Part shown: positions 6,814 to 63,215 of the stretch, one piece after another
Numbering within the stretch: position 1 is the stretch's first letter
Layout: each line of letters opens with the position of its first letter
From: Escherichia coli
Lineage (GTDB): Bacteria; Pseudomonadota; Gammaproteobacteria; Enterobacterales; Enterobacteriaceae
Reading direction: 5' to 3' (one strand)
Assembly: GCF_030013595.1 (NCBI RefSeq)
Contig: NZ_CP122768.1
DNA: 64,000 nucleotides
The notes under the pieces: generated by a model
The model's input: the letters and a program-made list of their open reading frames with translations, nothing else
Told to the model about the DNA's origin: nothing
Database searches by the model: none
Made by a program: the position numbers and the translations under genes

Positions 6814-6837
6814 GCGTGTAATTGCGGAGACTTTGCG

Positions 6838-30022: not shown

Positions 30023-30044
30023 ACGTCATTCGTTTAAAAATGAG

Positions 30045-31555: not shown

Positions 31556-31936
31556 ATGAAAATGACAAAACTGGCCACACTATTTTTGACTGCCACTCTA
31601 AGCCTTGCCAGCGGTGCCGCACTGGCTGCCGATAGCGGAGCGCAAAGCAATAACGGCCAGGCAAACGCCGCAGCTGATGCGGGCCAGGTAGCCCCTGATG
31701 CCCGTGAAAATGTCGCGCCAAATAACGTCGACAATAACGGGGTAAATACCGGTTCTGGCGGCACAATGCTGCATCCGGATGGTTCTTCAATGAACAATGA
31801 CGGCATGACCAAAGATGAAGAGCACAAGAACACCATGTGCAAAGATGGTCGCTGTCCGGATATCAATAAAAAGGTACAAACTGGTGATGGCATCAACAAT
31901 GATGTCGATACCAAAACCGACGGTACCACGCAGTAA
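31556..31936 (+). CDS. ybgS: YbgS, secreted low-complexity protein
   Basis: 126 aa with signal peptide. Confidence 0.8.
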
Positions 31937-32049
31937 CCCTGCGAAATAGCCAATAATGGGAGAGCGGAGTCTCTCCCTTTTAATTTTTCCCTTCTAAAAG
32001 CAGTATGATGTCATAAAGTTAAGTGAGAATAATTAAGGGATGACTCGTC

Positions 32050-33707: not shown

Positions 33708-33744
33708 CTTTCCCCCAAAGCGTAACGTTACGCCTTATTATTCG

Positions 33745-34788: not shown

Positions 34789-34860
34789 CTTACCATCTCG
34801 TTTTACAGGCTTAACGTTAAAACCGACATGAGCGTAATATTCGCTGTTATCGGTGTAATT

Positions 34861-34878
34861 TGTTTTATATGCTAAACA
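34861..34878 (-). promoter_or_regulatory. Candidate NadR box upstream of nadA-pnuC
   Basis: TGTTTtatatgcTAAACA inverted repeat. Confidence 0.4.
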
Positions 34879-35190
34879 AGATAGTCGAATGGTGGGGAAA
34901 AGTCACTCGAATTACGTATGAGATGCCGAATGCCACACTTTGCGTCTTATTTCTCCGACGTAAAGTTGTTTACGCAGCAAACGCGGAGTATGTCATCTGG
35001 GTTAAGAATTGAAATTGAGAGATGCCTGAATAGCAAAAAAGCGCCTTTAGGGCGCTTTTTTACATTGGTGGGTCGTGCAGGATGACTCGCTTCGCTCGCC
35101 CTTCGGGCCGTCGCCGCGAGCGGCTCCGTTGTTTCGCTGCGCTCAACTCAAACCTGCTGCAGGTTCGAATCTTTGAGTATCGCAGATAGC

Positions 35191-35218
35191 AAAAAAGCGC
35201 CTTTAGGGCGCTTTTTTA
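35191..35218 (-). terminator. Rho-independent terminator after tRNA cluster (second copy at 35033-35061)
   Basis: AAAAAAGCGCC-ttta-GGGCGCTTTTTT symmetric hairpin. Confidence 0.6.
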
Positions 35219-35221
35219 CAT

Positions 35222-35297
35222 TGGTGGGTCGTGCAGGATTCGAACCTGCGACCAATTGATTAAAAGTCAACTGCTCTACCAACTGAGCTAACGACCC
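35222..35297 (-). tRNA. lysQ: tRNA-Lys (UUU)
   Basis: Reverse complement matches tRNA-Lys including CCA end; position in cluster. Confidence 0.9.
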
Positions 35298-35330
35298 CTT
35301 GCGGGATTATGCTGCTTTAATCATTCAGGA

Positions 35331-35406
35331 TGGTGGGTCGTGCAGGATTCGAACCTGCGACCAATTGATTAAAAGTCAACTGCTCTACCAACTGAGCTAA
35401 CGACCC
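35331..35406 (-). tRNA. lysZ: tRNA-Lys (UUU)
   Basis: Identical tRNA-Lys copy. Confidence 0.9.
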
Positions 35407-35552
35407 ATACGGGTGTTACCTGAAAGATTTCTACTCGGAACCAATCTTTAAAATTGGTGGGTCGTGCAGGATGACTCGCTTCGCTCGCCCTTCGGGCCGT
35501 TGCTGGCGCAACGTTATCCTTCACGCTTAACATCTGAGTTTGATGTTAAAAT

Positions 35553-35628
35553 TGGTGGGTCGTGCAGGATTCGAACCTGCGACCAATTGATTAAAAGTCA
35601 ACTGCTCTACCAACTGAGCTAACGACCC
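35553..35628 (-). tRNA. lysY: tRNA-Lys (UUU)
   Basis: Identical tRNA-Lys copy. Confidence 0.9.
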
Positions 35629-35631
35629 GAG

Positions 35632-35707
35632 TGGTGGGTGATGACGGGATCGAACCGCCGCCCCCCTCCTTGTAAGGGAGGTGCTCTCCCAGCTGAGCTA
35701 ATCACCC
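35632..35707 (-). tRNA. valZ: tRNA-Val (UAC)
   Basis: Reverse complement matches tRNA-Val(UAC), one base variant from the other copy. Confidence 0.9.
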
Positions 35708-35758
35708 GATACTGCGCTGGATACTACAAACTACTTCCACCGAACCCACCGTAATTAG

Positions 35759-35834
35759 TGGTGGGTCGTGCAGGATTCGAACCTGCGACCAATTGATTAA
35801 AAGTCAACTGCTCTACCAACTGAGCTAACGACCC
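35759..35834 (-). tRNA. lysW: tRNA-Lys (UUU)
   Basis: Identical tRNA-Lys copy. Confidence 0.9.
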
Positions 35835-35836
35835 GG

Positions 35837-35912
35837 TGGTGGGTGATGACGGGATCGAACCGCCGACCCCCTCCTTGTAAGGGAGGTGCTCTCCCAGCTG
35901 AGCTAATCACCC
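35837..35912 (-). tRNA. valT: tRNA-Val (UAC)
   Basis: Reverse complement matches tRNA-Val(UAC). Confidence 0.9.
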
Positions 35913-36047
35913 AATACTACGCTGGATACTACAACTAACTATGTTAGTGGTGGGTCGTGCAGGATGACTCGACTTCGTCTCGCCCTTCGGGCCGTTGCTG
36001 ACGCAACGTTATCCTTCACGTTTTACTACCGCTTCCACCTTAGCGAT

Positions 36048-36123
36048 TGGTGGGTCGTGCAGGATTCGAACCTGCGACCAATTGATTAAAAGTCAACTGC
36101 TCTACCAACTGAGCTAACGACCC
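36048..36123 (-). tRNA. lysT: tRNA-Lys (UUU)
   Basis: Identical tRNA-Lys copy, first gene of cluster. Confidence 0.9.
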
Positions 36124-36287
36124 ACTTTTTCGTTGCTTTCGGTTTGTTTGATATCCCGTGGCAACGGCGGCATATATTACTGATTTCAGACTTGAGCGCA
36201 ACAAAAATTTCGATGCAGATCACTCAACTGCTTATGATTCGCACGACACGACCAGAAATAATGCGACTTCTGGTCGTGTGTTATGCA

Positions 36288-37079
36288 TTACATCGCGTTC
36301 AGACGTTTTTGCGCCTGTTTAGCGCCATCAGTACCAGGGTATTTACTGATAACCTGCTGGTATACGGCTTTCGCTTTTGCGGTGTCACCTTTGTCCTGCA
36401 TGATGACGCCGACTTTAAACATCGCATCTGCAGCCTTTGGCGACTTCGGATAGTTTTTTACTACCGAAGCAAAATAGTACGCCGCATCATCTTTTTTACC
36501 CTTGTTGTAGTTTAACTGACCCAGCCAATAATTGGCGTTTGGCAGGTAAGTTGAATCAGGGTAATTTTTGATGAAATTCTGAAATGCCACCATTGCGTCA
36601 TCCTGGCGGGATTTATCCTGCACCAGCGCAATAGCTGCATTGTAATCCGTGTTTGCATCACCGCTTTTCACCGGCGCGCCAGCATTCGCAGTACCAGCAT
36701 CAGCTGTCGGCGTCATTGATGCCGCCGCACCGCTTTGATCGCCGCTGGTTGATTGCGCCGCTGCACCACCGCTGCTGAGGCTATCGATCTGCAACAGGAT
36801 CTGCTTTTGCCGCTCCACGACCTGATTCAGTTGATACTGATTTTCCTGAATCTGACCACGCAGGGAATCAATATCGGATTGATTATCAGAGAGTTGTTGC
36901 TGGAGTTGGGTTAAAAGCTGGCTGTGAGCATTTGAAATACGCTCAAGTTGAGTGACGCGGTCTTCGACCGAGCCTGAGCCGACACTACTGATTGGTGCCT
37001 GAGCAAAAGCGGCCCAGGGGGCCGCTATACCAACCAGTAACGACAGACTCAATAGTTGATGTCTGAAGTTACTGCTCAT
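36288..37079 (-). CDS. cpoB: CpoB (YbgF), TPR-containing cell-division coordinator
   Basis: 263 aa, signal peptide, coiled coil plus TPR. Confidence 0.9.
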   Translation of the reverse strand: MSSNFRHQLLSLSLLVGIAAPWAAFAQAPISSVGSGSVEDRVTQLERISNAHSQLLTQLQQQLSDNQSDIDSLRGQIQENQYQLNQVVERQKQILLQIDSLSSGGAAAQSTSGDQSGAAASMTPTADAGTANAGAPVKSGDANTDYNAAIALVQDKSRQDDAMVAFQNFIKNYPDSTYLPNANYWLGQLNYNKGKKDDAAYYFASVVKNYPKSPKAADAMFKVGVIMQDKGDTAKAKAVYQQVISKYPGTDGAKQAQKRLNAM

Positions 37080-37088
37080 GCAATTCTC

Positions 37089-37634
<546 letters not shown>

Positions 37635-45570: not shown

Positions 45571-46024
45571 AATCAACCAAATATGTTAATTATGTATAAA
45601 CCATAGATCATTGGTAATTTTATTGTTAATTTATTGTGAAATATTTATGCAACACAATTATTACAATGAAAAAGTATAGATAAAAAACCAGTGTTTTATT
45701 TAACAGAACCGCCCTATCCACTTTTTATAATACCAATTGATTAGAGTAGCCAATTTGTTGCTATTTTACATAACATATTTTTATCAAAGTTAATTGATTG
45801 TTGCCTTTATGAGCACCGGCCGTAAGCCCGTTATGTTATTGTTTCATTAGTAATAATCACTTAAATGTATCGATGAAACAGGTATGACTTAGCGGGAGTG
45901 ATTGTTTCTGAGTGAACAGAGACCACTTTCGCCTGATAAATGAAAAATGAGCGATTTTTGCAAGTTAGTTTTTCTATAGCCGAGTACGCTCAGCGCCTCG
46001 CTTGATTACAATGAGGTTGCTGCT

Positions 46025-46969
46025 ATGAGTCCTGATAATATCAGTTCTGCTGTCAATCGCTTCTCAGGTTGGCCATCTAATGATCCTCTAAAAACAGATA
46101 AAGAATCAATGACATCACCCATGACTGTGCAGGTAATAAAGATGATTGCCGCCATCCTTGACCCACATCGGATAGTCGTTGGAATCGATACACTTTATAC
46201 AACGCAGCGCGAAACATTTACCTCAGAGAGTCAACAGCTCATTGAATCAGCATTGCAAACACTTCATGTGATGAATTTAAATAACCTGGAAACAAATCTC
46301 GATGAGGAAGGTCACTATCTGGCTTTTGGATATAACGTTGACACTCCTGACAGAATAACCGTTTCTGCTTATAATGAAAAAAAGCCTGGCTGCTATGGCC
46401 AATGTCTTTTAATACAGGATGACGAAACAGACTTATTTAACCTGATAAAAGTTAAAATTTTTGAAGCCAGGCATAATTATGTCGCTCAATTGATGAGCGA
46501 TCCGGAATTTATGTTCAAATTTAGTTATAGCGCTCAACAAAATAGATTAGAACCTCATCTTCTGGTTCCCACTTATTTCCCTCTAAAAACAAACGAACCG
46601 GTTACGCAAGAGGATGTACTGTTACTTTATCGTTTCTTTAAAATGGATGGTGATTTTAATATATTAACATCAGATGAATACATGAGTATCATGACACCTC
46701 TAATGAAGTGTGAGCGTAGCATCCACGACCACAACAGGTATGTGACGGGCAAAGATCCCCTTCTTCTGGACTATCCTCCTTCTGGTAACCAGATATATTT
46801 CCATATTTTTCCTGACGAATCAGCAACACTAGTCCTTTATTTTTCAAACAATGACATTGAATGTTTCGTCTTTGAAAGAGATATTCCGAGCCAGTATCGC
46901 TTTTTCAAAATGTTTACCAATCTGGCACTGGTTATTGATCAGTTAACCGATGCCAATCAAATACTTTAA
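46025..46969 (+). CDS. Hypothetical protein, AT-rich accessory gene, no recognised domain
   Basis: 314-aa ORF in low-GC DNA where long random ORFs are unlikely; Ser/Pro/Asn-rich N-terminus. Confidence 0.6.
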   Translation: MSPDNISSAVNRFSGWPSNDPLKTDKESMTSPMTVQVIKMIAAILDPHRIVVGIDTLYTTQRETFTSESQQLIESALQTLHVMNLNNLETNLDEEGHYLAFGYNVDTPDRITVSAYNEKKPGCYGQCLLIQDDETDLFNLIKVKIFEARHNYVAQLMSDPEFMFKFSYSAQQNRLEPHLLVPTYFPLKTNEPVTQEDVLLLYRFFKMDGDFNILTSDEYMSIMTPLMKCERSIHDHNRYVTGKDPLLLDYPPSGNQIYFHIFPDESATLVLYFSNNDIECFVFERDIPSQYRFFKMFTNLALVIDQLTDANQIL

Positions 46970-47049
46970 TTTTTATATATTCCCTGTGGCAAATATTGCT
47001 AAACAATGCCCGGGGATTAATTTTTATTACTCACGGAAAGATTTAAATA

Positions 47050-47472
47050 ATGATCCCATCTCAAATCTCTTTCAACACCCTTCCTGTCAATGCAACATAC
47101 GCTTCAGAGACAACAGTTGACACACAAAAATTCTCTGACATCCTCTACTCAGCGGGGTGTTCCCTAAAGGATCTGGCTTATCTGAGCAGATGTCTGGCAT
47201 CAATACATCCGACTATCGCCAAAAACATTTATGAAACAGAAAATCTCAGCGATCAAAAATTACTACATATTGATTGCCGTAGTACAAATGAAATCAAGAT
47301 AAATATCTTTTTTGGTCAACAACGAGAAGGATTAATTGAAATTAGTTCTGACACAGTCATTTTTTCGATACTGTCTTCATTGATTGACTCCACCATTTCT
47401 AAATTTCAACACCAAAACCCCGTTAACGGTTCTGTAAATCCTGACCTATTGTATGAGGATTATACTGATTAA
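47050..47472 (+). CDS. Hypothetical protein, AT-rich accessory gene, no recognised domain
   Basis: 140-aa ORF 80 nt downstream of previous ORF, same strand, same low GC. Confidence 0.5.
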   Translation: MIPSQISFNTLPVNATYASETTVDTQKFSDILYSAGCSLKDLAYLSRCLASIHPTIAKNIYETENLSDQKLLHIDCRSTNEIKINIFFGQQREGLIEISSDTVIFSILSSLIDSTISKFQHQNPVNGSVNPDLLYEDYTD

Positions 47473-48019
47473 ATCCCTCCTGTCGCGAAAAATGGCCTGC
47501 GTTATTGCCAGACGTAATAAAACTTTTGATTAACGTTTCTCGTACTGGTAGCACCTTCATGTACTTTTCTTTTTTACGAAAAATCAAAAGAGCTAACAAA
47601 GGTCATAATTCGCATGAATCATTAATTATTTGTTATTTTCAACATTATTTTTACATTAAGCAGAGATGAATTGCAGTGAAATTCGACTTAATTTTTATGA
47701 AATGCATTTACTCATGGCTAAAGCCACGTCACAAAAATGCAAATTAGAAGTTGATCACAATTATCTCAATACATCAAATCAAGTTAATTTTAAAAATTTA
47801 ACATTCATGACACTAGTTGACATAACACACTGAATTAAAATGAGAATTTGGAAACACACTTTAAACAATCATTTCCCGAAAGACATTTTGAAAATAGATC
47901 AATTGCAACATTACGGTCAGATAAAGACACTCCTGTGATATTAAACCTGTGCCGTTATGAACGGCCATAAATACGACGTGTGTAACTTATTTTACTCTCT
48001 GTCTTACAAAGGATTACCC

Positions 48020-48469
48020 ATGAAGAAAGCAACACTTGTGATTGGCGTTATTGGCGCGGACTGCCATGCAGTAGGCAATAAAGTTCTGGACCGCGTTTTT
48101 AGCAACCATGGCTTCAGAGTCATTAATCTGGGCGTAATGGTCAGCCAGGACGAATATATTGATGCTGCCATTGAAACTGGCGCTGACGCGATTGTCGTCT
48201 CCTCTATCTATGGGCATGGCGATATCGACTGTCTGGGCATGCGCGAACGCTGCATCGAGCGTGGACTGGGTGACATCCTGCTCTATGTGGGCGGTAACCT
48301 GGTGGTCGGAAAACATGACTTCGCTGACGTGGAAACCAAATTTAAAGAGATGGGATTTGATCGCGTCTTTGCCCCAAGTCATGACTTAGAAGATGTTTGT
48401 CAGCTGATGGCCCACGATATCAACCAACGTCATGACGTTGATACTCGCATTCTTGAAGAGGCAATCTGA
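48020..48469 (+). CDS. Glutamate mutase sigma (S) subunit, B12-binding (methylaspartate mutase S chain)
   Basis: 149 aa from [21 protein letters not shown] (B12-binding DxHxxG motif). Confidence 0.85.
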
Positions 48470-49857
48470 TGCAAATCGTCTCTGTCGATATTGGATCGAC
48501 GTGGACCAAAGCAGCCCTCTTCGCCCGGGAGGGGGACGCGTTAACGTTGGTTAACCACGTACTGACCCCAACCACCACCCATCATCTGGCGAAGGGGTTT
48601 TTCTCCAGCCTGAACCTGGTGTTAAACGTAGATAATGCCCTCCCCCTGTTTAACAGCGGTGAGGTTACATTGAAGTATTCCTCCTCTGCCAAAGGTGGGC
48701 TGGCGGTTGCCGCAATGGGATTGGTGCCTTCTATCACCCTGGAAACCGCGAAAGTAACCGCTCACTCTGCGGGGGCTAAAATTGCGCAATATTACTCCTA
48801 CAAGCTGAACCGCCGTGATATCCAGGCACTGGAAGAAACGCAGCCCGATATTCTCTTGTTCACCGGCGGCACCGACGGCGGAGAAGAAAGCTACGGCCTG
48901 AATAACGCCCGTGTGCTGGCAGAATCCAAACTCGACTGCGCCATTATTTATGCCGGAAACCGGGATATTCAGGACGAAGTGCAGGAGATCCTAGGGCATA
49001 AAGACCTGACCATCGTCGACAACGTTCTGCCCGATCTTGACCATCCGAACCCTTTAGCCGCACGCCAGGCTATCTGCGACATATTCCTTAAACGCATCGT
49101 TAAAGGGAAAGGGCTGGATGTCGTTGTTGATAAAACAGGCGAAGAACCAATGCCGACACCATGGACGGTCTTTGAACTGGTTAAGGCAATCAGTAACGTC
49201 GATCACAGCTGGAAAGAGTTCATGCTGATCGACATGGGCGGCGCAACCACCGATGTCTATTCCGCCTGTGCCAACACGCTCTCGCCCGACACCGTTTTAC
49301 ACGGCGTACCGGAACCCTTCGTGAAACGGACGGTGGAAGGCGATCTGGGAATGCGCGTCTCGGCAATGGTGGTTGGTGAAAGTGCGAAAGAGTTAGTCAA
49401 TGTGAATTTTGCTCAGCAACCCGCACAGCTGGACGCTTTTTATCATTACCTCCGTCATCTAGTCGCTCATCCCGACTACTTACCCGCGAATGCAGAAGAA
49501 AAATATTTCGATACCGTCCTGGCCGGACTGTGTGTGGGTTATGCCACCGAAAGACATGCGGGCACCAAAAAAGAGGTCTGCACCTGCGTCGGCAATGTCG
49601 ATTTACAGATGGGACGTGACCTGACAACCGTGCGTAAAGTCGTCGGATCCGGCGGATGGCTCTCGCGTGCCAGTCAGTTCGATATGCATCACTGGTTGAA
49701 ATACCGCGAGTTAAACGACGACGGTAAACGCATTCTCTTACCGACCGAATTTGAATATTACCGCGATTCCCGGGGGCTATTACCACTGCTGGCAAACGTC
49801 GCCAGAGTCGATCCTCTGGCCGCCGCGCGCACCAGTATTCAATGCTTAACCCTATAA
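48469..49857 (+). CDS. Glutamate mutase accessory protein L (MutL/GlmL)
   Basis: 462 aa; sits between S and E subunits as in clostridial clusters. Confidence 0.75.
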   Translation: MQIVSVDIGSTWTKAALFAREGDALTLVNHVLTPTTTHHLAKGFFSSLNLVLNVDNALPLFNSGEVTLKYSSSAKGGLAVAAMGLVPSITLETAKVTAHSAGAKIAQYYSYKLNRRDIQALEETQPDILLFTGGTDGGEESYGLNNARVLAESKLDCAIIYAGNRDIQDEVQEILGHKDLTIVDNVLPDLDHPNPLAARQAICDIFLKRIVKGKGLDVVVDKTGEEPMPTPWTVFELVKAISNVDHSWKEFMLIDMGGATTDVYSACANTLSPDTVLHGVPEPFVKRTVEGDLGMRVSAMVVGESAKELVNVNFAQQPAQLDAFYHYLRHLVAHPDYLPANAEEKYFDTVLAGLCVGYATERHAGTKKEVCTCVGNVDLQMGRDLTTVRKVVGSGGWLSRASQFDMHHWLKYRELNDDGKRILLPTEFEYYRDSRGLLPLLANVARVDPLAAARTSIQCLTL

Positions 49858-49875
49858 CAATTAAGGCTGCAATCA

Positions 49876-51321
49876 ATGGAACTTCGAAATAAGAAATTAA
49901 CCCATGACGAATTCATGACCGAGCGGCAACAGGTACTGAAAACCTGGGAAACCGGCAAGGATGTTGAAAACTTTGAAGATGGCGTTAAATACCAACAAAC
50001 CATTCCTGAGCATAAACGCTTCTCTCTTGCGCTGTTGAAAGCAGACAAGGAAGGTAAAACCCTTAGCCAACCGCGCGCAGGTGTGGCGCTGATGGACGAA
50101 CACATCGAACTACTGAAAACACTACAAGAAGAGTGCGATCTGCTGCCGAGCACTATCGATGCATATACCCGTCTGAATCGGTACGAAGAAGCGGCTGTAG
50201 GGATTAAAAAATCCATCGAAGCCGGAACCTCTAAACTGAACGGTTTGCCGGTAGTTAACCATGGCGTCGCAGCTTGCCGTCGCCTCACCGAAACCCTGCA
50301 AAAACCGCTACAGATCCGCCACGGCACGCCAGATGCGCGTCTGCTGGCTGAAATCTCAATGGCCAGCGGCTTTACCAGTTATGAAGGCGGTGGCATTTCC
50401 TACAACATTCCGTATGCCAAACGCGTAACGCTGGAAAAATCGATCCGCGACTGGCAGTACTGCGACCGTTTAATGGGGATGTATGAAGAACACGGGATCC
50501 GCATCAACCGCGAACCGTTTGGCCCACTAACGGGTACGCTGATCCCGCCGTTTATCTCGCACTCTATCGCGATAATCGAAGGCTTGCTGGCGCTGGAACA
50601 GGGTGTGAAATCTATCACCGTTGGTTATGGACAGGTCGGCAGCCTGACGCAGGATGTTGCGGCGATCCAGTCTCTGCGTGAACTTGCACACGAATATTTT
50701 CAGAGCTATGGCTATACCGACTATGAATTAAGTACCGTGTTTCACCAGTGGATGGGCGGCTTTCCGGAAGACGAATCGAAAGCGTTCGCTATTATCTCCT
50801 GGGGCGCAGCCGTCGCGGGGATGTCTGGTGCCACCAAAGTCATCACCAAAAGTCCGCACGAAGCCTGGGGCATCCCGACTGCCGCTGCCAACATTCAGGG
50901 GCTGAAAGCCTCCCGCCAGATGCTCAACATGGTCAACGAGCAGAAATTCCCGCCGTGCCCTGCGGTTGAACTGGAAATTGAACTGATTAAGAGCGAGGTT
51001 CGCGCGGTACTGAATAAAGTGTTCGAACTGGGTAATGGTGATATTGCGCGCGGTACGGTGCTGGCATTTGAAGCGGGCGTACTGGATGTGCCGTTTGCGC
51101 CAGCCGCCTGCAACGCGGGCAAAATTCTTCCGGTCCGTGACAACACCGGCGCGATACGCGTACTGGAAGCCGGAGCCGTTCCATTGCCAAAAGATATTCT
51201 CGACCTCCACCACGATTACGTTGCTGAACGCGCACGCTTTGAAGGACGCCAACCGACATTCCAGATGGTTGTAGATGACATCAATGCTGTATCCCACAGT
51301 AAATTAATAGGAAGACCATAA
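49876..51321 (+). CDS. Glutamate mutase epsilon (E) subunit (methylaspartate mutase E chain)
   Basis: 481 aa TIM-barrel mutase. Confidence 0.85.
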   Translation: MELRNKKLTHDEFMTERQQVLKTWETGKDVENFEDGVKYQQTIPEHKRFSLALLKADKEGKTLSQPRAGVALMDEHIELLKTLQEECDLLPSTIDAYTRLNRYEEAAVGIKKSIEAGTSKLNGLPVVNHGVAACRRLTETLQKPLQIRHGTPDARLLAEISMASGFTSYEGGGISYNIPYAKRVTLEKSIRDWQYCDRLMGMYEEHGIRINREPFGPLTGTLIPPFISHSIAIIEGLLALEQGVKSITVGYGQVGSLTQDVAAIQSLRELAHEYFQSYGYTDYELSTVFHQWMGGFPEDESKAFAIISWGAAVAGMSGATKVITKSPHEAWGIPTAAANIQGLKASRQMLNMVNEQKFPPCPAVELEIELIKSEVRAVLNKVFELGNGDIARGTVLAFEAGVLDVPFAPAACNAGKILPVRDNTGAIRVLEAGAVPLPKDILDLHHDYVAERARFEGRQPTFQMVVDDINAVSHSKLIGRP

Positions 51322-52562
51322 TGAAAATAAAACAGGCTCTGTTCACCGCTGGCTACTCCTCATTCTATTTCGATGACCAGCAGGCGATAAAAAACGGAGC
51401 GGGTCATGACGGCTTTTTTTATACCGGGGAGCCAGTAACACAGGGGTTTAACGCCGTACGTCAGGCCGGGGAGTGCGTATCGGTACAGTTGATTCTGGAA
51501 AACGGCGCGGTCGCCGTAGGTGACTGTGCTGCCGTACAGTATTCCGGGGCAGGTGGTCGCGATCCACTGTTCCTCGCAGAGCACTTTATTCCGTTCCTCA
51601 ACGACCATATCAAGCCATTACTGGTAGGCCGCGATGTGGATGCTTTCCTGCCGAATGCCCGTTTCTTCGACAAATTGCGTATTGACGGCAACTTGCTACA
51701 TACCGCCGTGCGCTACGGATTATCACAGGCGCTGCTTGATGCTACCGCGCTGGCAACCGGCCGTCTGAAAACTGAAGTAGTTTGCGATGAATGGCAGTTG
51801 CCACGCGTGGCGGAATCCATTCCATTATTTGGTCAGAGCGGTGACGATCGATATATCGCCGTCGATAAGATGATCCTTAAGGGCATCGACGTGCTGCCCC
51901 ATGCACTGATTAATAACGTCGAAGAGAAACTAGGCTTTAAAGGTGAAAAACTGCGCGAATATGTCCGCTGGCTGTCGGATCGTATTCTGAGCAAGCGCAC
52001 CAGCGCACGCTACCACCCTACCCTGCACATCGATGTATACGGCACTATCGGTCTGATCTTCGATATGGATCCGCTTCGCTGTGCGCAATACATCGCCAGC
52101 CTGGAAAAAGAAGCGCAAGGCCTGCCGCTCTACATTGAAGGGCCGGTCGATGCCGGTAACAAGCCCGATCAAATTCGCCTGCTGACCGCGATTACCAAAG
52201 AGCTGACGCGCCTCGGTTCCGGCGTGAAAATTGTGGCCGATGAATGGTGTAACACCTACCAGGATATTGTTGATTTTACTGATGCCGCCAGTTGCCACAT
52301 GGTGCAAATCAAAACCCCGGATCTGGGCAGTATTCACAACATCGTCGATGCGGTTCTTTACTGCAACAGCCACAGCATGGAAGCGTACCAGGGCGGCACC
52401 TGCAATGAAACTGATGTCAGTGCCTGCACCTGTGTCCACGTCGCCCTTGCCGCTCGCCCTATGCGTATGCTGGTAAAGCCAGGGATGGGCTTTGACGAAG
52501 GCCTCGATATCGTCTTCAACGAAATGAATCGTACTATCGCGCTGTTGCAGGCTAAGGATTAA
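51321..52562 (+). CDS. 3-Methylaspartate ammonia-lyase
   Basis: 413 aa enolase-superfamily protein, MKIKQALFTAGYSSFYFDDQQAIKNGAGHDGF. Confidence 0.85.
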   Translation: MKIKQALFTAGYSSFYFDDQQAIKNGAGHDGFFYTGEPVTQGFNAVRQAGECVSVQLILENGAVAVGDCAAVQYSGAGGRDPLFLAEHFIPFLNDHIKPLLVGRDVDAFLPNARFFDKLRIDGNLLHTAVRYGLSQALLDATALATGRLKTEVVCDEWQLPRVAESIPLFGQSGDDRYIAVDKMILKGIDVLPHALINNVEEKLGFKGEKLREYVRWLSDRILSKRTSARYHPTLHIDVYGTIGLIFDMDPLRCAQYIASLEKEAQGLPLYIEGPVDAGNKPDQIRLLTAITKELTRLGSGVKIVADEWCNTYQDIVDFTDAASCHMVQIKTPDLGSIHNIVDAVLYCNSHSMEAYQGGTCNETDVSACTCVHVALAARPMRMLVKPGMGFDEGLDIVFNEMNRTIALLQAKD

Positions 52563-52565
52563 CAA

Positions 52566-53936
52566 ATGGCTCGTTCTTTTAAAGTCTTATCGCCAACGGC
52601 AATCCTCGGGTATGGATTCCCGGAAGAGAGCTTCCGTAAAGCGATGGCAGAATCGCCCGATCTGATCGCCGTTGATGCAGGCTCTTCCGATCCTGGCCCC
52701 CACTACCTCGGGGCGGGCAAACCGTTTACCGATCGCGCAGGGGTCAAGCGCGATCTGCGCTATATGATCACCGCAGGCGTGCAAAATAATATACCGGTGG
52801 TGATCGGAACGGCTGGCGGTTCTGGTGCCGCACCACACCTGGAGTGGTGCCGAGAAATAATTCATGAGATTGCCCGGGAAGAGCACCTCTCGTTCTCGAT
52901 GGCGTTGATCCCGGCAGACGTTGACAAAGCCATCGTCCACCAGGCGCTGGATAACGGCAAAATCACGGCGCTGGATTTTGTCCCGCCGTTAACCCACGAC
53001 GCGATTGACGAAAGTACGTATATCGTCGCGCAAATGGGCATCGAACCCTTCCAGCAGGCGCTGAAAGAAGGCGCGCAAGTGGTGCTGGGCGGGCGCGCTT
53101 ACGACCCGGCCTGCTTTGCTGCGCTACCGATCATGCAAGGCTTTGATGAAGGTCTGGCGCTGCATTGTGGGAAAATCCTTGAATGCGCGGCAATCGCCGC
53201 AACGCCCGGCTCAGGCTCTGACTGGGCGATGGGCATCATTGATGACAACGGCTTTACGCTGAAGACATTTAATCCGAAGCGTAAATTTACCGAAACGTCA
53301 GCGGCTGCACACACACTGTATGAGAAATCCGATCCCTACTTCCTGCCAGGACCTGGCGGCGTGTTGAACCTGAAAGACTGCACATTTAAAGCGGTCAATG
53401 ACGGCGAAGTGTACGTCAGCGGTTCTAAGCATGAAGAAACGCCGTATGCCCTGAAACTGGAAGGTGCGCGACGAGTGGGCTTCCGCTGTCTGACCATCGC
53501 AGGAACGCGCGACCCGATCATGATCGCCGGGATCGATAAAATCATCGATGAAGTCAAAACCAGCGTTTCGCGTAACCTGTCGCTCGACGATGACAGCATT
53601 CACATCAATTTCCACCTGTACGGCAAAAACGGGGTGATGGGCGACCATGAACCGATGCAAACTGCCGGGCATGAGCTGGGGATTGTCCTTGATGTAGTTG
53701 CACCGACCCAGGAAATTGCCAATAGCGTTTGCTCGCTGGTGCGCTCTACCATGCTGCACTACGGCTATGAAAACCGCATCGCTACCGCAGGCAATCTGGC
53801 GTTCCCGTTCTCCCCTTCTGATATCCAGGGCGGGCCGGTATACGAATTTTCCATATATCACCTGATTGAAGCCAACGACGCTCTGCGTTTTGATTTCCAT
53901 ATTGAACAGGTGACGCCAGAAGGAGTTCAGGCATGA
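52566..53936 (+). CDS. DUF1446 (AtuA-like) family protein
   Basis: 456 aa; family assignment from recalled sequence features. Confidence 0.6.
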   Translation: MARSFKVLSPTAILGYGFPEESFRKAMAESPDLIAVDAGSSDPGPHYLGAGKPFTDRAGVKRDLRYMITAGVQNNIPVVIGTAGGSGAAPHLEWCREIIHEIAREEHLSFSMALIPADVDKAIVHQALDNGKITALDFVPPLTHDAIDESTYIVAQMGIEPFQQALKEGAQVVLGGRAYDPACFAALPIMQGFDEGLALHCGKILECAAIAATPGSGSDWAMGIIDDNGFTLKTFNPKRKFTETSAAAHTLYEKSDPYFLPGPGGVLNLKDCTFKAVNDGEVYVSGSKHEETPYALKLEGARRVGFRCLTIAGTRDPIMIAGIDKIIDEVKTSVSRNLSLDDDSIHINFHLYGKNGVMGDHEPMQTAGHELGIVLDVVAPTQEIANSVCSLVRSTMLHYGYENRIATAGNLAFPFSPSDIQGGPVYEFSIYHLIEANDALRFDFHIEQVTPEGVQA

Positions 53937-54250
53937 AACAGTCAATTGTCTCACTGGCGCAAGTCATTCGTTCGAAAAATGCCGGACCTTACGAACTGGT
54001 TTTAGATATTTTATTTAAAACCAAAGAAAACTATGAGCGTGTCAAATCATCAGGGCAATTAACCCCAGAACTGATCGCGCGCTTATATCATGTTGAACCT
54101 GACTTTATTCATCGTATTGTCTGGTTTGATCCTTCTAACGCAGTAAAAATCGTCATGCCACGAGATATTATCTCCGGGAATGTAGGTGACAATGATGTCT
54201 ATGGTGCACAGCAACATGCACCTTTATTAAATATGAGTTTCGATTTGTAA
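53933..54250 (+). CDS. DUF4387 family protein, usual partner of DUF1446
   Basis: 105 aa, start overlaps upstream stop. Confidence 0.55.
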   Translation: MKQSIVSLAQVIRSKNAGPYELVLDILFKTKENYERVKSSGQLTPELIARLYHVEPDFIHRIVWFDPSNAVKIVMPRDIISGNVGDNDVYGAQQHAPLLNMSFDL

Positions 54251-54398
54251 AAATCCGAATACTTTTAGCCAACTGACATCCCGTCACTTATTGCAGTTCA
54301 ACACTTCAGCTATTTGTAAGGTTGTAATAGCAGGTAGATGCCTGAATCTCTATTCAGGCATCTACTTCTCCTGATTCTGATTTATCGCCGCGCACCTG

Positions 54399-55691
54399 AT
54401 GGAGGAAAAAATGAAGAAAATAAGTTTAACCACGATGATTCTTTTGGCGCTGGTACTTGGAATGATTATCGGCGTAGTGCTCAATAACACTGCTTCACCG
54501 GAAACCGCAAAACTCTATGCGCAAGAAATATCGATATTCACGACGATTTTCTTACGACTGATAAAAATGATTATCGCTCCGTTAGTGGTCTCTACCCTGG
54601 TGGTAGGTATAGCTAAAATGGGCGATGCCAAAGCCCTTGGTCGTATTTTTTCTAAAACACTCTTTTTATTTATTTGCGCCTCATTGCTGTCAATTGCCTT
54701 AGGCTTGATAACAGTAAATTTCTTCATGCCAGGCACAGGAATTAATTTTGTTGCACACGGAGCCGAAACCACCGGAGTGGTCGCGTCAGAACCCTTTACG
54801 CTAAAAGTATTTATTTCGCATGCTTTCCCCACCAGCATTGTCGATGCCATGGCGCACAATGAAATTTTGCAAATCGTGGTGTTCTCAATTTTCCTCGGCT
54901 GTAGCCTGACGGCGATTGGCGAGAAAGCCAGCGCCATCGTTCACGCCTTAGATTCGCTGGCACATGCCATGTTAAAGCTCACTGGCTACGTCATGCTCTT
55001 CGCTCCCCTGACCGTATTCGCTGCTATTTCAGCATTGATTGCTGAACGAGGACTGGCAGTTATGGTGAGCGCCGGGATCTTTATGGGTGAATTTTATTTC
55101 ACCATGTTATTACTTTGGGTGCTGCTTATCGGTCTGGCCATCGTTTATGTTGGCCCCTGCATCAGACGCCTGACCCGCGCCCTTTCGGAACCCGCCCTGC
55201 TGGCATTTACCACATCCAGTTCTGAAGCGGCTTTTCCAGGAACGCTTGAAAAACTGGAGCAATTTGGCGTTTCCCCCAAAATTGCCAGCTTTGTCTTACC
55301 CATTGGCTACTCATTTAATCTCGTTGGATCAATGGCCTACTGCTCCTTCGCCACAGTTTTCATCGCCCAGGCCTGCAATATCCATTTATCCATCGGTGAG
55401 CAAATCACCATGCTGTTGATCCTGATGTTGACCTCGAAAGGAATGGCTGGCGTACCACGCGCCTCAATGGTGGTTATCGCCGCCACGCTCAACCAGTTCA
55501 ATATTCCGGAAGCGGGGCTGATCTTGCTGATGGGCGTTGATCCGTTCCTTGATATGGGGCGTTCCGCGACAAACGTCATGAGCAACGCAATGGGCGCTGC
55601 GATGGTGAGTCGGTGGGAAGGCGAACATTTCGGCGAGGGCTGTCGGGGTAAAGCATTAAAACCCAATGAATCGAACGTTGCTCTGCCCTGA
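54399..55691 (+). CDS. Dicarboxylate/amino acid:cation symporter (DAACS; GltP/DctA family)
   Basis: 430 aa, polytopic, SDF-family motif TSKGMAGVP; start may be 54411. Confidence 0.8.
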   Translation: MEEKMKKISLTTMILLALVLGMIIGVVLNNTASPETAKLYAQEISIFTTIFLRLIKMIIAPLVVSTLVVGIAKMGDAKALGRIFSKTLFLFICASLLSIALGLITVNFFMPGTGINFVAHGAETTGVVASEPFTLKVFISHAFPTSIVDAMAHNEILQIVVFSIFLGCSLTAIGEKASAIVHALDSLAHAMLKLTGYVMLFAPLTVFAAISALIAERGLAVMVSAGIFMGEFYFTMLLLWVLLIGLAIVYVGPCIRRLTRALSEPALLAFTTSSSEAAFPGTLEKLEQFGVSPKIASFVLPIGYSFNLVGSMAYCSFATVFIAQACNIHLSIGEQITMLLILMLTSKGMAGVPRASMVVIAATLNQFNIPEAGLILLMGVDPFLDMGRSATNVMSNAMGAAMVSRWEGEHFGEGCRGKALKPNESNVALP

Positions 55692-55798
55692 GGGGGATCT
55701 TAAGCAATCAGAAGCCAATGACTACGCATTTTTATAAGCCGGATCATGAAGTTAGACGGCAATTAAGTAACACTAACGTTTAAGGTGAAAAGTGAAAT

Positions 55799-57451
55799 AT
55801 GTCAAAACCATTTATCTGGCAAGAACCGTTTCTACAAAATAAAGACGGTACAGAATATACATTAATTAGCGATCAGCATATTACAGTAACGGAATTAGAC
55901 GGCGAAGAAGTGATAAAAATCGCTCCTGAAGCATTAACGCTGCTTGCCCGGCAGGCATTTTATGAAGCCTCTTTTTTCTTACGTTCCGCTCATTTGCAAC
56001 AGGTCGCCAGCATTCTTAACGATCCGCAGGCCAGTAGTAATGATAAATACGTTGCGTTGCAGTTATTACGTAATGCTGAAGTCTCAGCAAAAGGGGTATT
56101 ACCCAACTGTCAGGATACCGGCACCGCAACTATTGTTGCCAGTAAAGGGCAACAGATATGGACGGGAGGTAACGACGCTGAAGCCTTAAGCAAAGGCATT
56201 TACAGTACTTTCCAGGAAAATAATCTGCGCTTTTCACAAAATGCGCCGCTGGATATGTATACCGAAGTCAATACGCAAACCAATCTCCCGGCGCAGATTG
56301 ATATCAGCGCTGTCGCTGGTAATGAGTACCATTTTCTCTGTGTTAATAAAGGGGGCGGCTCCGCCAATAAAGCCGCACTTTATCAGGAAACCAAATCCTT
56401 ATTGCAACCAGAAAAACTGACCGCATTTTTAATCGAAAAAATGAAATCGCTGGGCACCGCTGCCTGCCCGCCTTACCACATCGCCTTTGTCGTCGGAGGG
56501 CTTTCAGCCGATCAAACCTTAAAAGTTGCCAAGCTGGCCTCAACGAAATATTACGACAATTTGCCCACCAGCGGAAACGAGCAAGGACAAGCATTCCGTG
56601 ATATTGAGCTGGAAAAAGTGTTGCTCGAGGCCAGTCAGCAATTTGGTATTGGTGCGCAATTTGGAGGTAAATATTTCGCTCATGATATTCGCGTCATTCG
56701 TCTGCCGCGTCACGGTGGCTCCTGCCCGATAGCTATGGCGCTCTCCTGTTCTGCCGATCGCAATATCAAAGCAAAAATTAACAAGCACGGTATCTGGCTG
56801 GAAAAACTCGAACACAATCCGGGGCAATATATTCCAGCCTCACTGCGGGAAGAAAATCACGCGCAACATGTACAGCTGGATCTAAACCGTCCGTTGCGTG
56901 ACGTGATGCAGGATCTCGCCAGATTACCGGTAGGTACCCGCGTGTCGTTAAGTGGTCCCATCGTAGTGGCGCGCGATATCGCCCACGCCAAAATAAAAGC
57001 GCGGCTGGATAGCGGCGAACCGATGCCGGATTACCTGAAGCATCATATTGTCTATTACGCTGGCCCGGCGAAAACACCGGAGAACATGGCCTGCGGTTCA
57101 CTAGGTCCAACCACGGGCGGTCGAATGGACGGTTATGTCGATACCTTCCAGGCTGCTGGCGGCAGTCTGGTAATGTTATCGAAAGGTAACCGCAGCCAGC
57201 AGGTCACCGATGCCTGTCACAAACATGGCGGCTTCAATCTGGGAAGTATTGGCGGTGCAGCTGCGTTACTGGCGCAAGAATATGTCAAAAGTCTGCGTTG
57301 CCTGGAATACCCGGAGCTGGGTATGGAAGCGGTGTGGATGATGGAAGTGGAAAATCTGCCCGCATTCATCCTGGTAGATGATAAAGGCAATAATTTCTTT
57401 AGTCAGTTTGAGCAGCAACACCGCTGCGCCAGTTGCCCTGCGGGACATTAA
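55799..57451 (+). CDS. fumD: Class I fumarate hydratase paralog; likely mesaconase (FumD-like)
   Basis: 550 aa, Fe-S class I fumarase family; embedded in methylaspartate cluster. Confidence 0.8.
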
Positions 57452-57460
57452 GGAAAATGA

Positions 57461-58063
57461 ATGGAAGCGCGAATTTCAACTGAACGGCATGTGCAGCGCC
57501 AGCAGAAATTGAAGGAACAGGTCGATACGCGCATCGCGGCGGCGATAGAGAAAAAAGGGATTTTGATTGTTTTCACCGGCAATGGCAAAGGGAAATCCAC
57601 TGCCGCGTTTGGTACTGTGACGCGCGCGGTGGGTCATGGCAAAACGGTGGGGGTTGCGCAGTACATCAAGGGGCAATGGGACAACGGCGAATACAACCTT
57701 CTCCAGCCGCTGGGGGTTGAGTTTCATATTATGGGAACCGGTTTTACCTGGGAGACACAGAACCGGCAAGCGGATATCGACGCGGCGAAAGAGGTCTGGT
57801 CGGAAAGCAAACGGATGCTGGCTGACAAGCGTTACGACTTAGTGGTGCTTGATGAGCTGACCTATATGCTGGCTTACCATTATCTGGATACCGAAGAAGT
57901 GATCGCTTCTCTGCAAAACCGCCCGGCACAACAAAGTGTCATTGTCACCGGACGCGGTTGCCACAGTCAGATATTAAAAATGGCGGATACGGTCAGCGAA
58001 ATCCGCCCCGTCAAACATGCTTTTGATAACGGCATTCAGGCCCAGCCGGGTATCGACTGGTAA
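57461..58063 (+). CDS. Cob(I)alamin adenosyltransferase (CobA/BtuR family)
   Basis: 200 aa, P-loop FTGNGKGKSTAAFG. Confidence 0.85.
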   Translation: MEARISTERHVQRQQKLKEQVDTRIAAAIEKKGILIVFTGNGKGKSTAAFGTVTRAVGHGKTVGVAQYIKGQWDNGEYNLLQPLGVEFHIMGTGFTWETQNRQADIDAAKEVWSESKRMLADKRYDLVVLDELTYMLAYHYLDTEEVIASLQNRPAQQSVIVTGRGCHSQILKMADTVSEIRPVKHAFDNGIQAQPGIDW

Positions 58064-58065
58064 TA

Positions 58066-58096
58066 ACTGCGCCTGGCATCCCGCCAGGCGCAGGTT
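58066..58096. terminator. Bidirectional terminator between adenosyltransferase and LysR genes
   Basis: CTGCGCCTGGC-atcc-CGCCAGGCGCAG hairpin with flanking A/T runs. Confidence 0.5.
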
Positions 58097-59002
58097 TTAC
58101 ATCTCCTGCGGTACAACCGATTTCGCCAGCAACCATTCACGAAATTGCTGCAAGTGCGGTGAGTCAGACTTCTCTTCCTGCCACGTCATAATAAAACGAT
58201 TACCGGTACGAATAGGCACATCACAGGGGATCACCATATCGCCACTATCCAAATCATGTTGAATAGCGAACCGTGGTAACAGCGCCACGCCGAGATTCGA
58301 GCGCACGGCGGCAATCAGCATTGAAAGCAAATCGAAACGTGGTCCGTTGTTGACCAGCGGACTGCTAACGCCAGATAAGGCAAACCACTCTTCCCAGCCA
58401 GTAATACGGGTACTTTGATGCAGAAGTGGTAACTCTGTAAGCAGTTCTGCCACTGACAGTTTTTGATCGGACATTGCAAGCAAACTGCCGCTGCATACCG
58501 GCAAAATCTCCTCATAAAAGAGATATTCTACTTCCGCCCAGGGCGCGCAAAAATTTTCGCGCATAATGACAGCATCGTACTCCCGATTAAGAAAATCGCC
58601 GTTATTAGCTAAAGAGTGAATATTAACAATAATATCGGGATGTAACTTTGTGAATTCATGTAAATTTGGGATTAACCAGTGAGTACTAAACGTAGGATTA
58701 ACGGCAAGTTCAATAACCTGAACCGTAGGCTGCCAGGTCATAATGGTATTGGTATCGCGTTCCAGCTTATTTAATGTTTCTTTTACTATCCCCAGGTAAT
58801 ACTTCCCTGCATCATTAAGAAAAATGCGTTTTTTAGAGTGTGAAAATAACGGAGTATGTAAAAATTCCTCCAGCGCACTTACTTGTCTGAATACAGCACT
58901 TTGGGTTAACGCTAACTCCTCTGCCGCTCTGGTATAGCTTTCATGACGTGCGACGACCTCAAAAGTCACCAGCTGCTCCGTTTTAGGTATTTTTCCTCGC
59001 AT
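58097..59002 (-). CDS. LysR-family transcriptional regulator
   Basis: 301 aa from MRGKIPKTEQL; HTH TQSAVFRQVSALE. Confidence 0.8.
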   Translation of the reverse strand: MRGKIPKTEQLVTFEVVARHESYTRAAEELALTQSAVFRQVSALEEFLHTPLFSHSKKRIFLNDAGKYYLGIVKETLNKLERDTNTIMTWQPTVQVIELAVNPTFSTHWLIPNLHEFTKLHPDIIVNIHSLANNGDFLNREYDAVIMRENFCAPWAEVEYLFYEEILPVCSGSLLAMSDQKLSVAELLTELPLLHQSTRITGWEEWFALSGVSSPLVNNGPRFDLLSMLIAAVRSNLGVALLPRFAIQHDLDSGDMVIPCDVPIRTGNRFIMTWQEEKSDSPHLQQFREWLLAKSVVPQEM

Positions 59003-59213
59003 AATGCCGTCCGTGAAAAAATAACAATTCAAAAATTATTTTATAAAAAACAGTAGCACTAATGAATATCATAATTCAAATAAACAAACCAGTCAGCTAT
59101 ATGTCTAACCAGGAAAATAAAGTGACAATAATCCTAAAACAGGAATTTCACCTCAGTTATCCGCATGCAATACTTTAAAGCTATTATTGCAAGAATATTA
59201 TTCATATACATGA

Positions 59214-59341
59214 ATATACTCTAAATAAGTCAAGTTGCAGGAAGGGAACAAATAATGAATTTCCAGAAGCTTACATAAGTAAGTGACCTGGGTGAGCGAA
59301 CATCGATGCAGCACATGCAACTTGAATTATGACAAGTATAC
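59214..59341. repeat. ERIC-like element, divergent copy
   Basis: Shares ...GCTTACATAAGTAAGTGAC(C)TGGGTGAGCGAAC...GCAGCACATGCAACTTGAA with ERIC at 13414-13542. Confidence 0.65.
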
Positions 59342-59591
59342 AATGATAAATTTATATACCCTATGTTATATATTATCTATGTCCGGTTAAATTGAATGAG
59401 TCATGGCCTTAAAAGACTTCACAAAAGATAATTCCTCTTTAACAATAAGCCAGATTTACCACTTGTAAAACTTGCTATCGCCACATACACTACGCGCGTT
59501 TTCTTTCCCTTTTGCTGGCTGCTGACCGGAAAGACAAAATTACCCTCGCAATACAGGGGGTTGTTTAACGTCTATATTTCAGGACAGCGTT

Positions 59592-60989
59592 ATGCATCAT
59601 CTTTCAAGGCTTGATAAAGCCTTTCTGCGCAAAGGGATCCAACTTTCCCGCGCCAACAATATTGTTTCATTATCTCGTCCATCAGGTGCCAGTGCCCGCG
59701 TACTGCTGCCGGACGAACTGCCGCTGGAAGAAAAAGCAGTAACACAACTGCTTGATTTTGCAGAAGTGAAGCTACCAGACCACCCAGGTTATGTGCGCCA
59801 GACGTGCGCGACGCCAGATTTTCATCCCGGCAATGGAGTCCCCGTTGGCGCGGTGGTGGCCTCAACGCCGGATTTAGTCATTCCCGCCGCCATCGGCACC
59901 GATATTTCTTGTGGCATGCGGCTGCTGACGACCGGATTAACACTTGAGCAAGCCGAAGCGCATAAAGACGTCATCGCTCAGCGGTTAACGCAAGTGCTAC
60001 TGCAAAATGAGCGCGATGTTCCGTTATCCGCACAGGCGTTCACCGCGCTTTTTGATGGCGGACCGGCAGATTGCGTGTCGACCTTGCCATCAGCAGGTCT
60101 CTGGACACGCACGAATATCCCCCGAATGGTACAAGAGATTGACCGCTGCATTGGGCTTAACGAGCATAACAGTCATTCGCGTTATGCCCCACCCGCCCTG
60201 CTGGCAACGGACCGCGCATTACTCCGCGATCCTTGTCTGGGTACGCCGGGTTCAGGTAATCATTTTATTGAACTTCAGGTCGTTGATAGCGTGGTTGATC
60301 GCCATGTAGCCTGGCAACAAGGGCTGAAAACAGGCGATATTGTGGTGATGATCCACAGTGGATCGCGAGATGTTGGCTTTTACGTCGGAAGACGCTGGAT
60401 GGATCGCGCCCGTGCTGAATGGCCCACCGGACATAAACATCCACAAAGCGGGTTATATGGTCTGGCAGGCGGACTGGCGGAGGAATATCTACAAGCGATA
60501 GGAATGGCGGCGCGTTACGCGTGGTTAAATCGCGTCACAATTGCCGAAATGGTGCGCGTATGTCTCGCCAATCTCTTTCATCAGGACAATTCGCATCTGG
60601 TGGTGGATGTGCCGCATAACATCATCCTTCGCGAGCATGAAATGAATATTCATCGCAAAGGTGCAACACCGGCACGAGTGGGCGATCTGGCATTAATCCC
60701 CGGTTCAATGGGCGATTATTCGTGGCTTGCAGTCGGTTGCGGCAACCCGGAGTGGCTGTGGTCATGCAGTCACGGAGCAGGACGCAGCCAGCGTCGACAG
60801 GCCATGCGCTCAAGCGCGACTGAAGAGTCAACGCTGCCGTGGCAATGCGTCACATTGCGTGAAGAACGACGTCTTGAAGAAGCGCCAGCGGCTTATAAAG
60901 ATATTGGTCCGGTTATCGAAGCCCAACAAGAAGCCGGATTAATTCAGCCAGCGGTCAGATTTCGACCGTGGTTAACGTTTAAGGCATAA
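59592..60989 (+). CDS. RtcB-family RNA ligase homolog (orphan)
   Basis: 465 aa; motifs GTDISCGMRL, GSGNHFIEL, HSGSRDVG, SHGAGRS. Confidence 0.75.
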   Translation: MHHLSRLDKAFLRKGIQLSRANNIVSLSRPSGASARVLLPDELPLEEKAVTQLLDFAEVKLPDHPGYVRQTCATPDFHPGNGVPVGAVVASTPDLVIPAAIGTDISCGMRLLTTGLTLEQAEAHKDVIAQRLTQVLLQNERDVPLSAQAFTALFDGGPADCVSTLPSAGLWTRTNIPRMVQEIDRCIGLNEHNSHSRYAPPALLATDRALLRDPCLGTPGSGNHFIELQVVDSVVDRHVAWQQGLKTGDIVVMIHSGSRDVGFYVGRRWMDRARAEWPTGHKHPQSGLYGLAGGLAEEYLQAIGMAARYAWLNRVTIAEMVRVCLANLFHQDNSHLVVDVPHNIILREHEMNIHRKGATPARVGDLALIPGSMGDYSWLAVGCGNPEWLWSCSHGAGRSQRRQAMRSSATEESTLPWQCVTLREERRLEEAPAAYKDIGPVIEAQQEAGLIQPAVRFRPWLTFKA

Positions 60990-61086
60990 AAAAGGCCATC
61001 ATACGATGGCCAACCATGTCGAAACCGACAGCCCTTCGCCATTCCTGTAGAGGGAAGCGGCGAGGGCTATTTCTTATTACAGATAT
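60987..61086 (-). ncRNA. sdhX: sucD 3'UTR with intrinsic terminator; SdhX (RybD) sRNA locus
   Basis: Minus-strand GGCCAUCGUAUGAUGGCC hairpin plus U6 directly downstream of sucD stop. Confidence 0.55.
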
Positions 61087-61956
61087 TTATTTCAGAACAG
61101 TTTTCAGTGCTTCACCGATATCCGCCAGGCTGCGAACGGTTTTCACGCCTGCGGCTTCCAGAGCAGCGAATTTCTCATCCGCAGTCCCTTTCCCACCGGC
61201 AATGATCGCACCCGCGTGGCCCATACGTTTGCCTTTCGGCGCAGTCACACCAGCGATGTAACCCACAACTGGCTTGGTAACATGCTCTTTGATGTACGCA
61301 GCCGCTTCTTCTTCAGCGCTACCGCCGATCTCACCGATCATCACGATCGCTTCGGTCTGCGGATCTTTTTCGAACATTTCGAGGATGTCGATAAAGTTAG
61401 AGCCAGGGATCGGGTCACCGCCGATACCAACACAGGTCGACTGACCGAAACCGTAATCCGTGGTCTGTTTCACCGCTTCATAGGTCAGTGTACCGGAACG
61501 GGAAACGATACCCACTTTACCCGGTTTGTGAATGTGACCAGGCTGGATACCGATTTTGCATTCACCCGGAGTGATAACGCCTGGGCAGTTCGGGCCGATC
61601 ATGCGAACGCCCGCTTCATCCAGTTTCACCTTCACGGTCAGCATATCCAGCGTCGGGATGCCTTCAGTGATGGTGATAATCAGTTTGATGCCTGCATCAA
61701 TAGCTTCCAGAATGGAGTCTTTGCAGAACGGTGCTGGTACGTAGATAACAGAAGCGGTAGCGCCAGTAGCAGCAACAGCTTCACGCACGGTATTGAACAC
61801 CGGCAGGCCGAGGTGGGTAGTACCGCCTTTACCTGGGGTTACGCCGCCAACCATTTTGGTGCCGTATGCAATGGCCTGTTCAGAGTGGAAAGTCCCCTGG
61901 CTACCGGTAAAGCCCTGGCAGATAACCTTGGTGTTTTTATCAATTAAAATGGACAT
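61087..61956 (-). CDS. sucD: Succinyl-CoA synthetase alpha subunit
   Basis: 289 aa. Confidence 0.95.
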
Positions 61957-63122: not shown

Positions 63123-63215
63123 GTGTTCTGTCCATCCTTCAGTAATCGTTATCTTTTAAACCGTAGACCGACACCCTATCCACGTCGGTCTACAGTGCAG
63201 GTGAAGCTTAAACTA

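Follow-up and report, generated by a model that had tools for sequence, protein, structure and literature searches.

The SdhX small RNA gene in the sucD 3′UTR at the edge of a strain-variable sucD–cydA segment of Escherichia coli

The 3′UTR of sucD in the Escherichia coli sequence analyzed here, a 64,000 nt stretch of contig NZ_CP122768.1 termed the window, is almost certainly the known SdhX sRNA gene, situated at the fixed edge of a strain-variable segment, with the boundary between the two most likely kept by selection. A first-pass annotation had placed an SdhX-type sRNA downstream of sucD, and direct alignment bears this out: positions 61086..60986 of the minus strand are identical to the annotated sdhX gene of E. 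coli K-12 (b4764) in 100 of 101 bases. The interval originally assigned, 60987..61086, is the K-12 equivalent, 60986..61086, less one base at the 3′ end. The presence of SdhX at a common polymorphic junction is in itself already known and ordinary.

The sucD gene, which encodes succinyl-CoA synthetase alpha, spans 61087..61956 on the minus strand, with its stop codon at 61087..61089. It was assigned from the open reading frame list and from the sucD annotation of collinear genomes, and its product is 99.7–100% identical to Escherichia SucD. It is the final gene of the sdhCDAB-sucABCD operon, with sucC and sucB upstream. In the K-12 reference record, the ncRNA sdhX occupies 765050..765150, i.e., 101 nt immediately after the sucD stop. 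The corresponding minus strand 3′UTR of the window reads AUAUCUGUAAUAAG...GGCCAUCGUAUGAUGGCC UUUUUU AUG, and in full, from 61086, AUAUCUGUAAUAAGAAAUAGCCCUCGCCGCUUCCCUCUACAGGAAUGGCGAAGGGCUGUCGGUUUCGACAUGGUUGGCCAUCGUAUGAUGGCCUUUUUUAU. The single mismatch to b4764 is at position 100, where A is present here and G in K-12; this is window position 60987, the first base past the U-run. In K-12, Term-seq gave a very strong signal (scores 19,842 and 34,704) for an RNA 3′ end at 765148(+) (Adams et al. 2021, PMC7815308, supplementary file 1), which corresponds to the final U of the run and to window position 60988. As the mismatch lies outside the mapped RNA, the 99 nt RNA (61086..60988) would equal K-12 SdhX in 99 of 99 bases. 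The long form of SdhX is accordingly placed at 60988..61086 on the minus strand, 99 nt to the mapped 3′ end and ∼101 nt in the K-12 annotation. No base differs from K-12 around the published UUU processing site, and BLAST of the sdhX region against E. coli genomes gives E = 7e-45; a match of this quality is well outside chance. Rfam 15 scans at gathering and permissive thresholds (E up to 10) gave no match to an SdhX family, and there is apparently no SdhX model in that collection; the sole match in the sdhX region was a chance, terminator-only match to isrD (17.3 bits vs. a gathering score of 37). Because there is no family match, it is the reference gene and the literature, and not a covariance model, that identify the RNA as SdhX.

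The structural parts of the RNA are all present on the minus strand. The published seed (PMC6393394), UUCGACAUGGU, is intact at 61013..61023, with its core CGACAU at 61021..61016, and directly precedes the terminator stem-loop. The Rho-independent terminator, the Hfq-binding 3′ module, is found at 60988..61011; as the first-pass annotation had stated, it consists of a hairpin, GGCCAUCGUAUGAUGGCC at 61011..60994, followed by a U-run, U6 at 60993..60988. A terminator consensus scan yields seven pairs, five of them G-C, and a loop of four. The 38 nt equivalent of SdhX2 (seed, terminator hairpin and U tail) would be 60988..61025 when 38 nt are counted back from the mapped 3′ end; its 5′ end in E. 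coli is set by analogy with Salmonella. Folding predicts a 5′ hairpin at 61030..61068, in a part of the RNA that differs from genus to genus and that Franconibacter lacks. The 102 nt stretch as a whole folds at −42.1 kcal/mol (z = −5.0), and none of 200 shuffled sequences was as good. By pair counting, the terminator helix is 100% paired in nine aligned taxa, with one compensatory change of U-A to C-G, and the 5′ hairpin has a compensatory C-G to U-A change in E. albertii. A small helix that overlaps the seed is not conserved by the same counting, which is expected for a seed that is single-stranded.

Conservation of the element within the species is close to complete. Of 5,426 complete E. coli genomes, 5,425 contain a match to the 101 nt query; the match spans 80% or more of the query in 5,424 and reaches 99% identity or more in 4,225. 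The only genome with a match below 80% of the query is that of E. coli FDAARGOS_944 (NZ_CP065613.1). In this strain an IS1 element lies within the sdhX seed, after ...CGACAUGG at sdhX position 73, and parts the seed from the terminator; judged from the sequence, the strain is probably a natural sdhX knock-out.

A cross-species scan, with one genome per species and a pattern extending from the sucD stop to the seed, returned 23 loci, of which seven are real: that of E. coli E69 and six from outside E. coli. The latter are in E. albertii, E. whittamii, Escherichia sp. E1V33, an E. coli-like MAG and two Franconibacter species. The pattern did not pick up E. fergusonii or Salmonella, presumably owing to deviations from its exact form. 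Across the nine aligned taxa, the seed, the terminator stem and the U-run are invariant out to Franconibacter, where the 5′ part is replaced. The alignment thus agrees with the description of SdhX in the literature as a conserved module of seed and terminator. In every non-K-12 genome among the matches listed, the RefSeq feature over the sdhX interval is "none". With neither a RefSeq annotation nor an Rfam model, SdhX is easily missed, and the value of the present assignment is mainly that of correct annotation.

SdhX, formerly RybD, is an Hfq-dependent RNA that has no promoter of its own and is cut from the operon mRNA by RNase E (PMC6393394). The sdhCDAB-sucABCD mRNA is ∼10 kb, and SdhX is released from it as longer and 38 nt forms (PMC6393394; reviewed in PMC9438474). 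The seed pairs with the AUG-UCG start of ackA mRNA, and ackA is thereby repressed (Miyakoshi et al. 2019, PMC6393394). Other targets are fumB and yfbV in Salmonella and fdoG and katG in E. coli (PMC6393394; PMC9438474). For katG, pairing takes place in the variable part that lies upstream of the seed and after the sucD stop (PMC6393394). Salmonella SdhX1 (87 nt) and SdhX2 (38 nt), for which ackA is the founding target, have the same UUCGACAUGGU directly before the terminator (PMC6393394), but the distance from stop to seed is shorter in Salmonella (the seed G is at position 41) and there is no katG-pairing region, whereas the window has the E. coli-type 5′ region. In the window, both G62, which pairs with fdoG, and the E. 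coli-specific upstream region that pairs with katG are unchanged.

Since the RNA is identical to K-12 SdhX, the K-12 mechanism would be expected to operate here as well. The sucD terminator hairpin and U tail would form the SdhX 3′ end and Hfq-binding module, and the seed would pair with the start-codon region of ackA, a gene located outside of the window. Acetate kinase would thereby be repressed and expression of the TCA cycle operon coupled to acetate metabolism. By analogy, expression, RNase E processing and Hfq binding in this strain may be taken to be as in K-12 and Salmonella.

Beyond the U-run the window departs abruptly from other E. coli genomes. In BLAST alignments, the stretch shared with K-12 extends from 63136 down to 60984, is then interrupted, and begins again at 45595, ∼370 bp upstream of cydA; for the B2 strain F11, the interruption lies between 60986 and 45860. 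Alignments and BLAST end points put the final bases that still resemble K-12, F11 and Franconibacter, AUGC[C], at 60983..60987, and K-12 similarity stops 4–5 bases past the U-run, which ends at 60988. The statement in the first-pass annotation that an accessory island begins directly beyond the terminator is therefore correct. Its further statement, that everything distal to the terminator had been replaced, is too broad: only 60983..45596, the sdhX-to-cydA portion, differs, with K-12 similarity back at 45595.

The strain-variable segment (45596..60983), as delimited by BLAST boundaries, the collinear annotation of strain GF4-3, open reading frames and Pfam, is 15.4 kb in length and stands where K-12 has the 5.9 kb mngR-mngA-mngB. 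It is collinear with GF4-3 at 97.9% identity. Its genes are rtcB, a LysR regulator, cobO, fumD (class I fumarase/mesaconase), a dicarboxylate symporter, DUF4387, AtuA, methylaspartate ammonia-lyase, the glutamate mutase genes glmE/L/S and two unknown open reading frames. A glutamate-fermentation cluster (methylaspartate/mesaconate pathway) with FumD has been described for O157:H7 and is scattered among enterobacteria (PMC4682846). The O157:H7 cluster has the same set of glutamate mutase S/L/E, methylaspartate ammonia-lyase, class I fumarase/mesaconase, cobO and symporter, but the window also keeps an intact rtcB beside sdhX. Two rtcB-less carriers of the island that were examined, EC6868 and DSM 103246, have rtcB remnants only. 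The two open reading frames proximal to cydA, at 46025..46969 (plus strand, 314 amino acids, termed hyp314) and 47050..47472 (plus strand, 140 amino acids), match nothing in Pfam or NCBIfam. In E. albertii, cydA is adjoined by a homolog of hyp314, which shows 56–69% identity and is apparently split in two.

The gene that abuts SdhX, at 59592..60989 on the plus strand, encodes an RtcB-family RNA ligase paralog of 465 amino acids (PF01139, E = 1e-94; annotated as "RtcB family protein" in GF4-3). It scores 204 bits against an NCBIfam RtcB equivalog cut-off of 407 and has ∼60 extra N-terminal residues ahead of the Pfam domain. Together with a leader of ∼110 nt (∼59483..59591), it is nearly identical in the MAG (MAG locus 5720..7229). 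As its neighbors in the MAG are different, rtcB is a separable module that always abuts the SdhX terminator.

The convergent gene is also what distinguishes the window from K-12 at this site. Position after the sucD stop, seed, 5′ hairpin, terminator and U6 tail are all the same as in K-12 b4764, but K-12 has a convergent mngR downstream, the stop codon of which is 3 nt past the annotated sdhX end, and the window has the convergent rtcB paralog. The rtcB reading frame ends in F-K-A-stop, and its TAA at 60987..60989 is formed by the last two T of the U-run and the A that differs from K-12. With the stop inside the U-run, any rtcB transcript must extend antisense into sdhX. No U tail follows the terminator hairpin when it is read on the plus strand, but UAUUUCUUAUU comes after the antisense of the 5′ hairpin and by its sequence is a possible plus strand terminator ∼80 nt further on. 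It might be envisaged that rtcB mRNA, or mngR mRNA in K-12, crosses sdhX in antisense orientation and affects SdhX as a sponge, by RNase III cleavage or through transcriptional interference, such that the cassette present tunes SdhX. The position of the rtcB stop within the U-run, with a candidate plus strand terminator only after the antisense 5′ hairpin, is consistent with such a process, but the inference is purely structural. The terminator scan gave no plus strand site there, the K-12 Term-seq tables contain no minus strand 3′ end for mngR, and a literature search found no link of SdhX to mngR or to convergent transcription. Antisense control by the convergent gene is therefore considered unlikely. 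A further K-12 3′ end, at 765604 (plus strand), is inside mngR in the antisense direction and apparently belongs to the Rho-dependent set. It suggests some read-through past the SdhX terminator; the equivalent here would enter rtcB antisense.

The sucD–cydA interval is a multi-allelic locus with at least five alternative contents, each starting within a few bases of the U-run. Among the 5,426 complete E. coli genomes, mngR is present in 3,884; the methylaspartate cluster, scored by an ammonia-lyase gene match, in 1,122, O157:H7 strains among them; and the TPR gene of the F11 type in 1,113, a class that partly overlaps that of mngR. Intact rtcB is found in 296. Outside of E. coli, only a hyp314 homolog precedes cydA in E. 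albertii, cydA follows directly in F. pulveris, a convergent mngR is present in F. helveticus, and the MAG has rtcB beside a urocanase/permease/HutD cluster. All junction types are alike through the U-run and then diverge 2–6 bases later. The locus thus provides a clean example of a 3′UTR-derived sRNA that is kept base for base while at least five unrelated contents alternate in the DNA past its U tail.

The junction itself appears to be old. E. whittamii and the cryptic-clade Escherichia sp. E1V33 have a remnant of the rtcB 3′ end beside the terminator, and the occurrence of such remnants in other Escherichia implies that the junction either predates the diversification of E. coli or was spread by recombination. 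With respect to the proposal in the first-pass annotation that an insertion had preserved the sRNA, preservation stands, as the RNA equals that of K-12; the event itself may have been an insertion or a replacement, given several alternative contents, the lack of mobility genes and repeats, and the age of the junction.

An extension of the antisense hypothesis can be drawn from the multi-allelic locus. The SdhX terminator would mark the constant border of a replacement hot spot; the mRNAs of the abutting convergent genes, with stops 0–3 nt from the U tail, would cross the seed in antisense orientation, so that the cassette present could set SdhX abundance or activity strain by strain. Such a process would link accessory gene content to core acetate/TCA regulation. 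Its support is geometry alone, and it is quite improbable.

A mobile element inserted site-specifically at the sucD terminator would also place the junction within a few bases of the U-run, since targeting would explain its precision. The GC content of the island, 47.9% compared with ∼52–54% in flanking genes, its patchy distribution (1,122 of 5,426 genomes) and the scattered occurrence of the glutamate-fermentation cluster among enterobacteria (PMC4682846) are in keeping with mobility. However, no integrase, transposase or tRNA was found at either end, in the island annotation or in the open reading frames scanned with Pfam/NCBIfam, and the two island boundaries share no repeats of 9 nt or more. 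The segment is also a mosaic in which rtcB occurs with or without the glutamate cluster. Moreover, unrelated cassettes (mngRAB, the TPR gene, the hut-like cluster and the hyp314 homolog alone) share one start point, which fits a boundary defined by selection better than the target site of one element. Site-specific insertion is thus very unlikely to account for the junction.

The sharp boundary is most likely the result of selection: the terminator and the sRNA are needed by the sdh-suc operon and for SdhX, and only variants that leave them intact persist. As mobility signatures are absent, homologous recombination in the core genes on either side is the probable route by which the alternative cassettes were exchanged.

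Bases changed past the U-run, or an overlapping convergent gene, could in principle alter termination efficiency or RNA stability. It is nevertheless extremely unlikely that the region in this strain is just the sucD intrinsic terminator and 3′UTR, devoid of a trans-acting RNA function, for example because the island altered termination or stability: the bases after the U-run are indeed not those of K-12 and the tail shares bases with the rtcB stop codon, but the RNA up to the mapped 3′ end is that of K-12 SdhX, whose function has been shown experimentally, the seed is invariant out to Franconibacter, and sdhX is intact in the ∼1,122 of 5,426 genomes with the island-type junction.

Two further candidates were rejected. 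One was targeting of island genes by SdhX: duplex energies at 14 island gene starts were no better than those of random window segments. The fumD gene was included because Salmonella SdhX represses fumB, but it starts with AUG-UCA and not AUG-UCG, and its duplex energy is −15.1 kcal/mol. The best island gene, cobO, reached −17.2 kcal/mol; the background has a mean of −15.4 and a 5th percentile of −20.9 kcal/mol. The other was a structured RNA at 59231..59326, an inverted repeat (aagttgca...tgcaactt) in the lysR-rtcB spacer (34% GC) upstream of rtcB. It has z of about −3.5 on both strands relative to shuffled sequences. In GF4-3, however, uncompensated changes disrupt the stem, the rtcB-sharing MAG lacks the region, and Rfam gave only weak chance matches over this interval.

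Several features elsewhere in the window may be mentioned. The sucB-sucC spacer at 63123..63215 (minus strand) is 93 nt and has no REP elements, as in F11; it is 275 nt with REP copies in GF4-3 and 365 nt in DSM 103246. Positions 1..∼8192 represent a lambda-like prophage arm, from the integrase through the N region, that is 98% identical to lambda 27724..35826 and contains a cIII thermoregulator at 2440..2498. The standard Lys/Val tRNA array, with seven tRNAs and three RtT matches, is at 35066..37188 (minus strand), and a CpoB/ybgF thermometer is at 37050..37188; both are expected in this region of E. coli.
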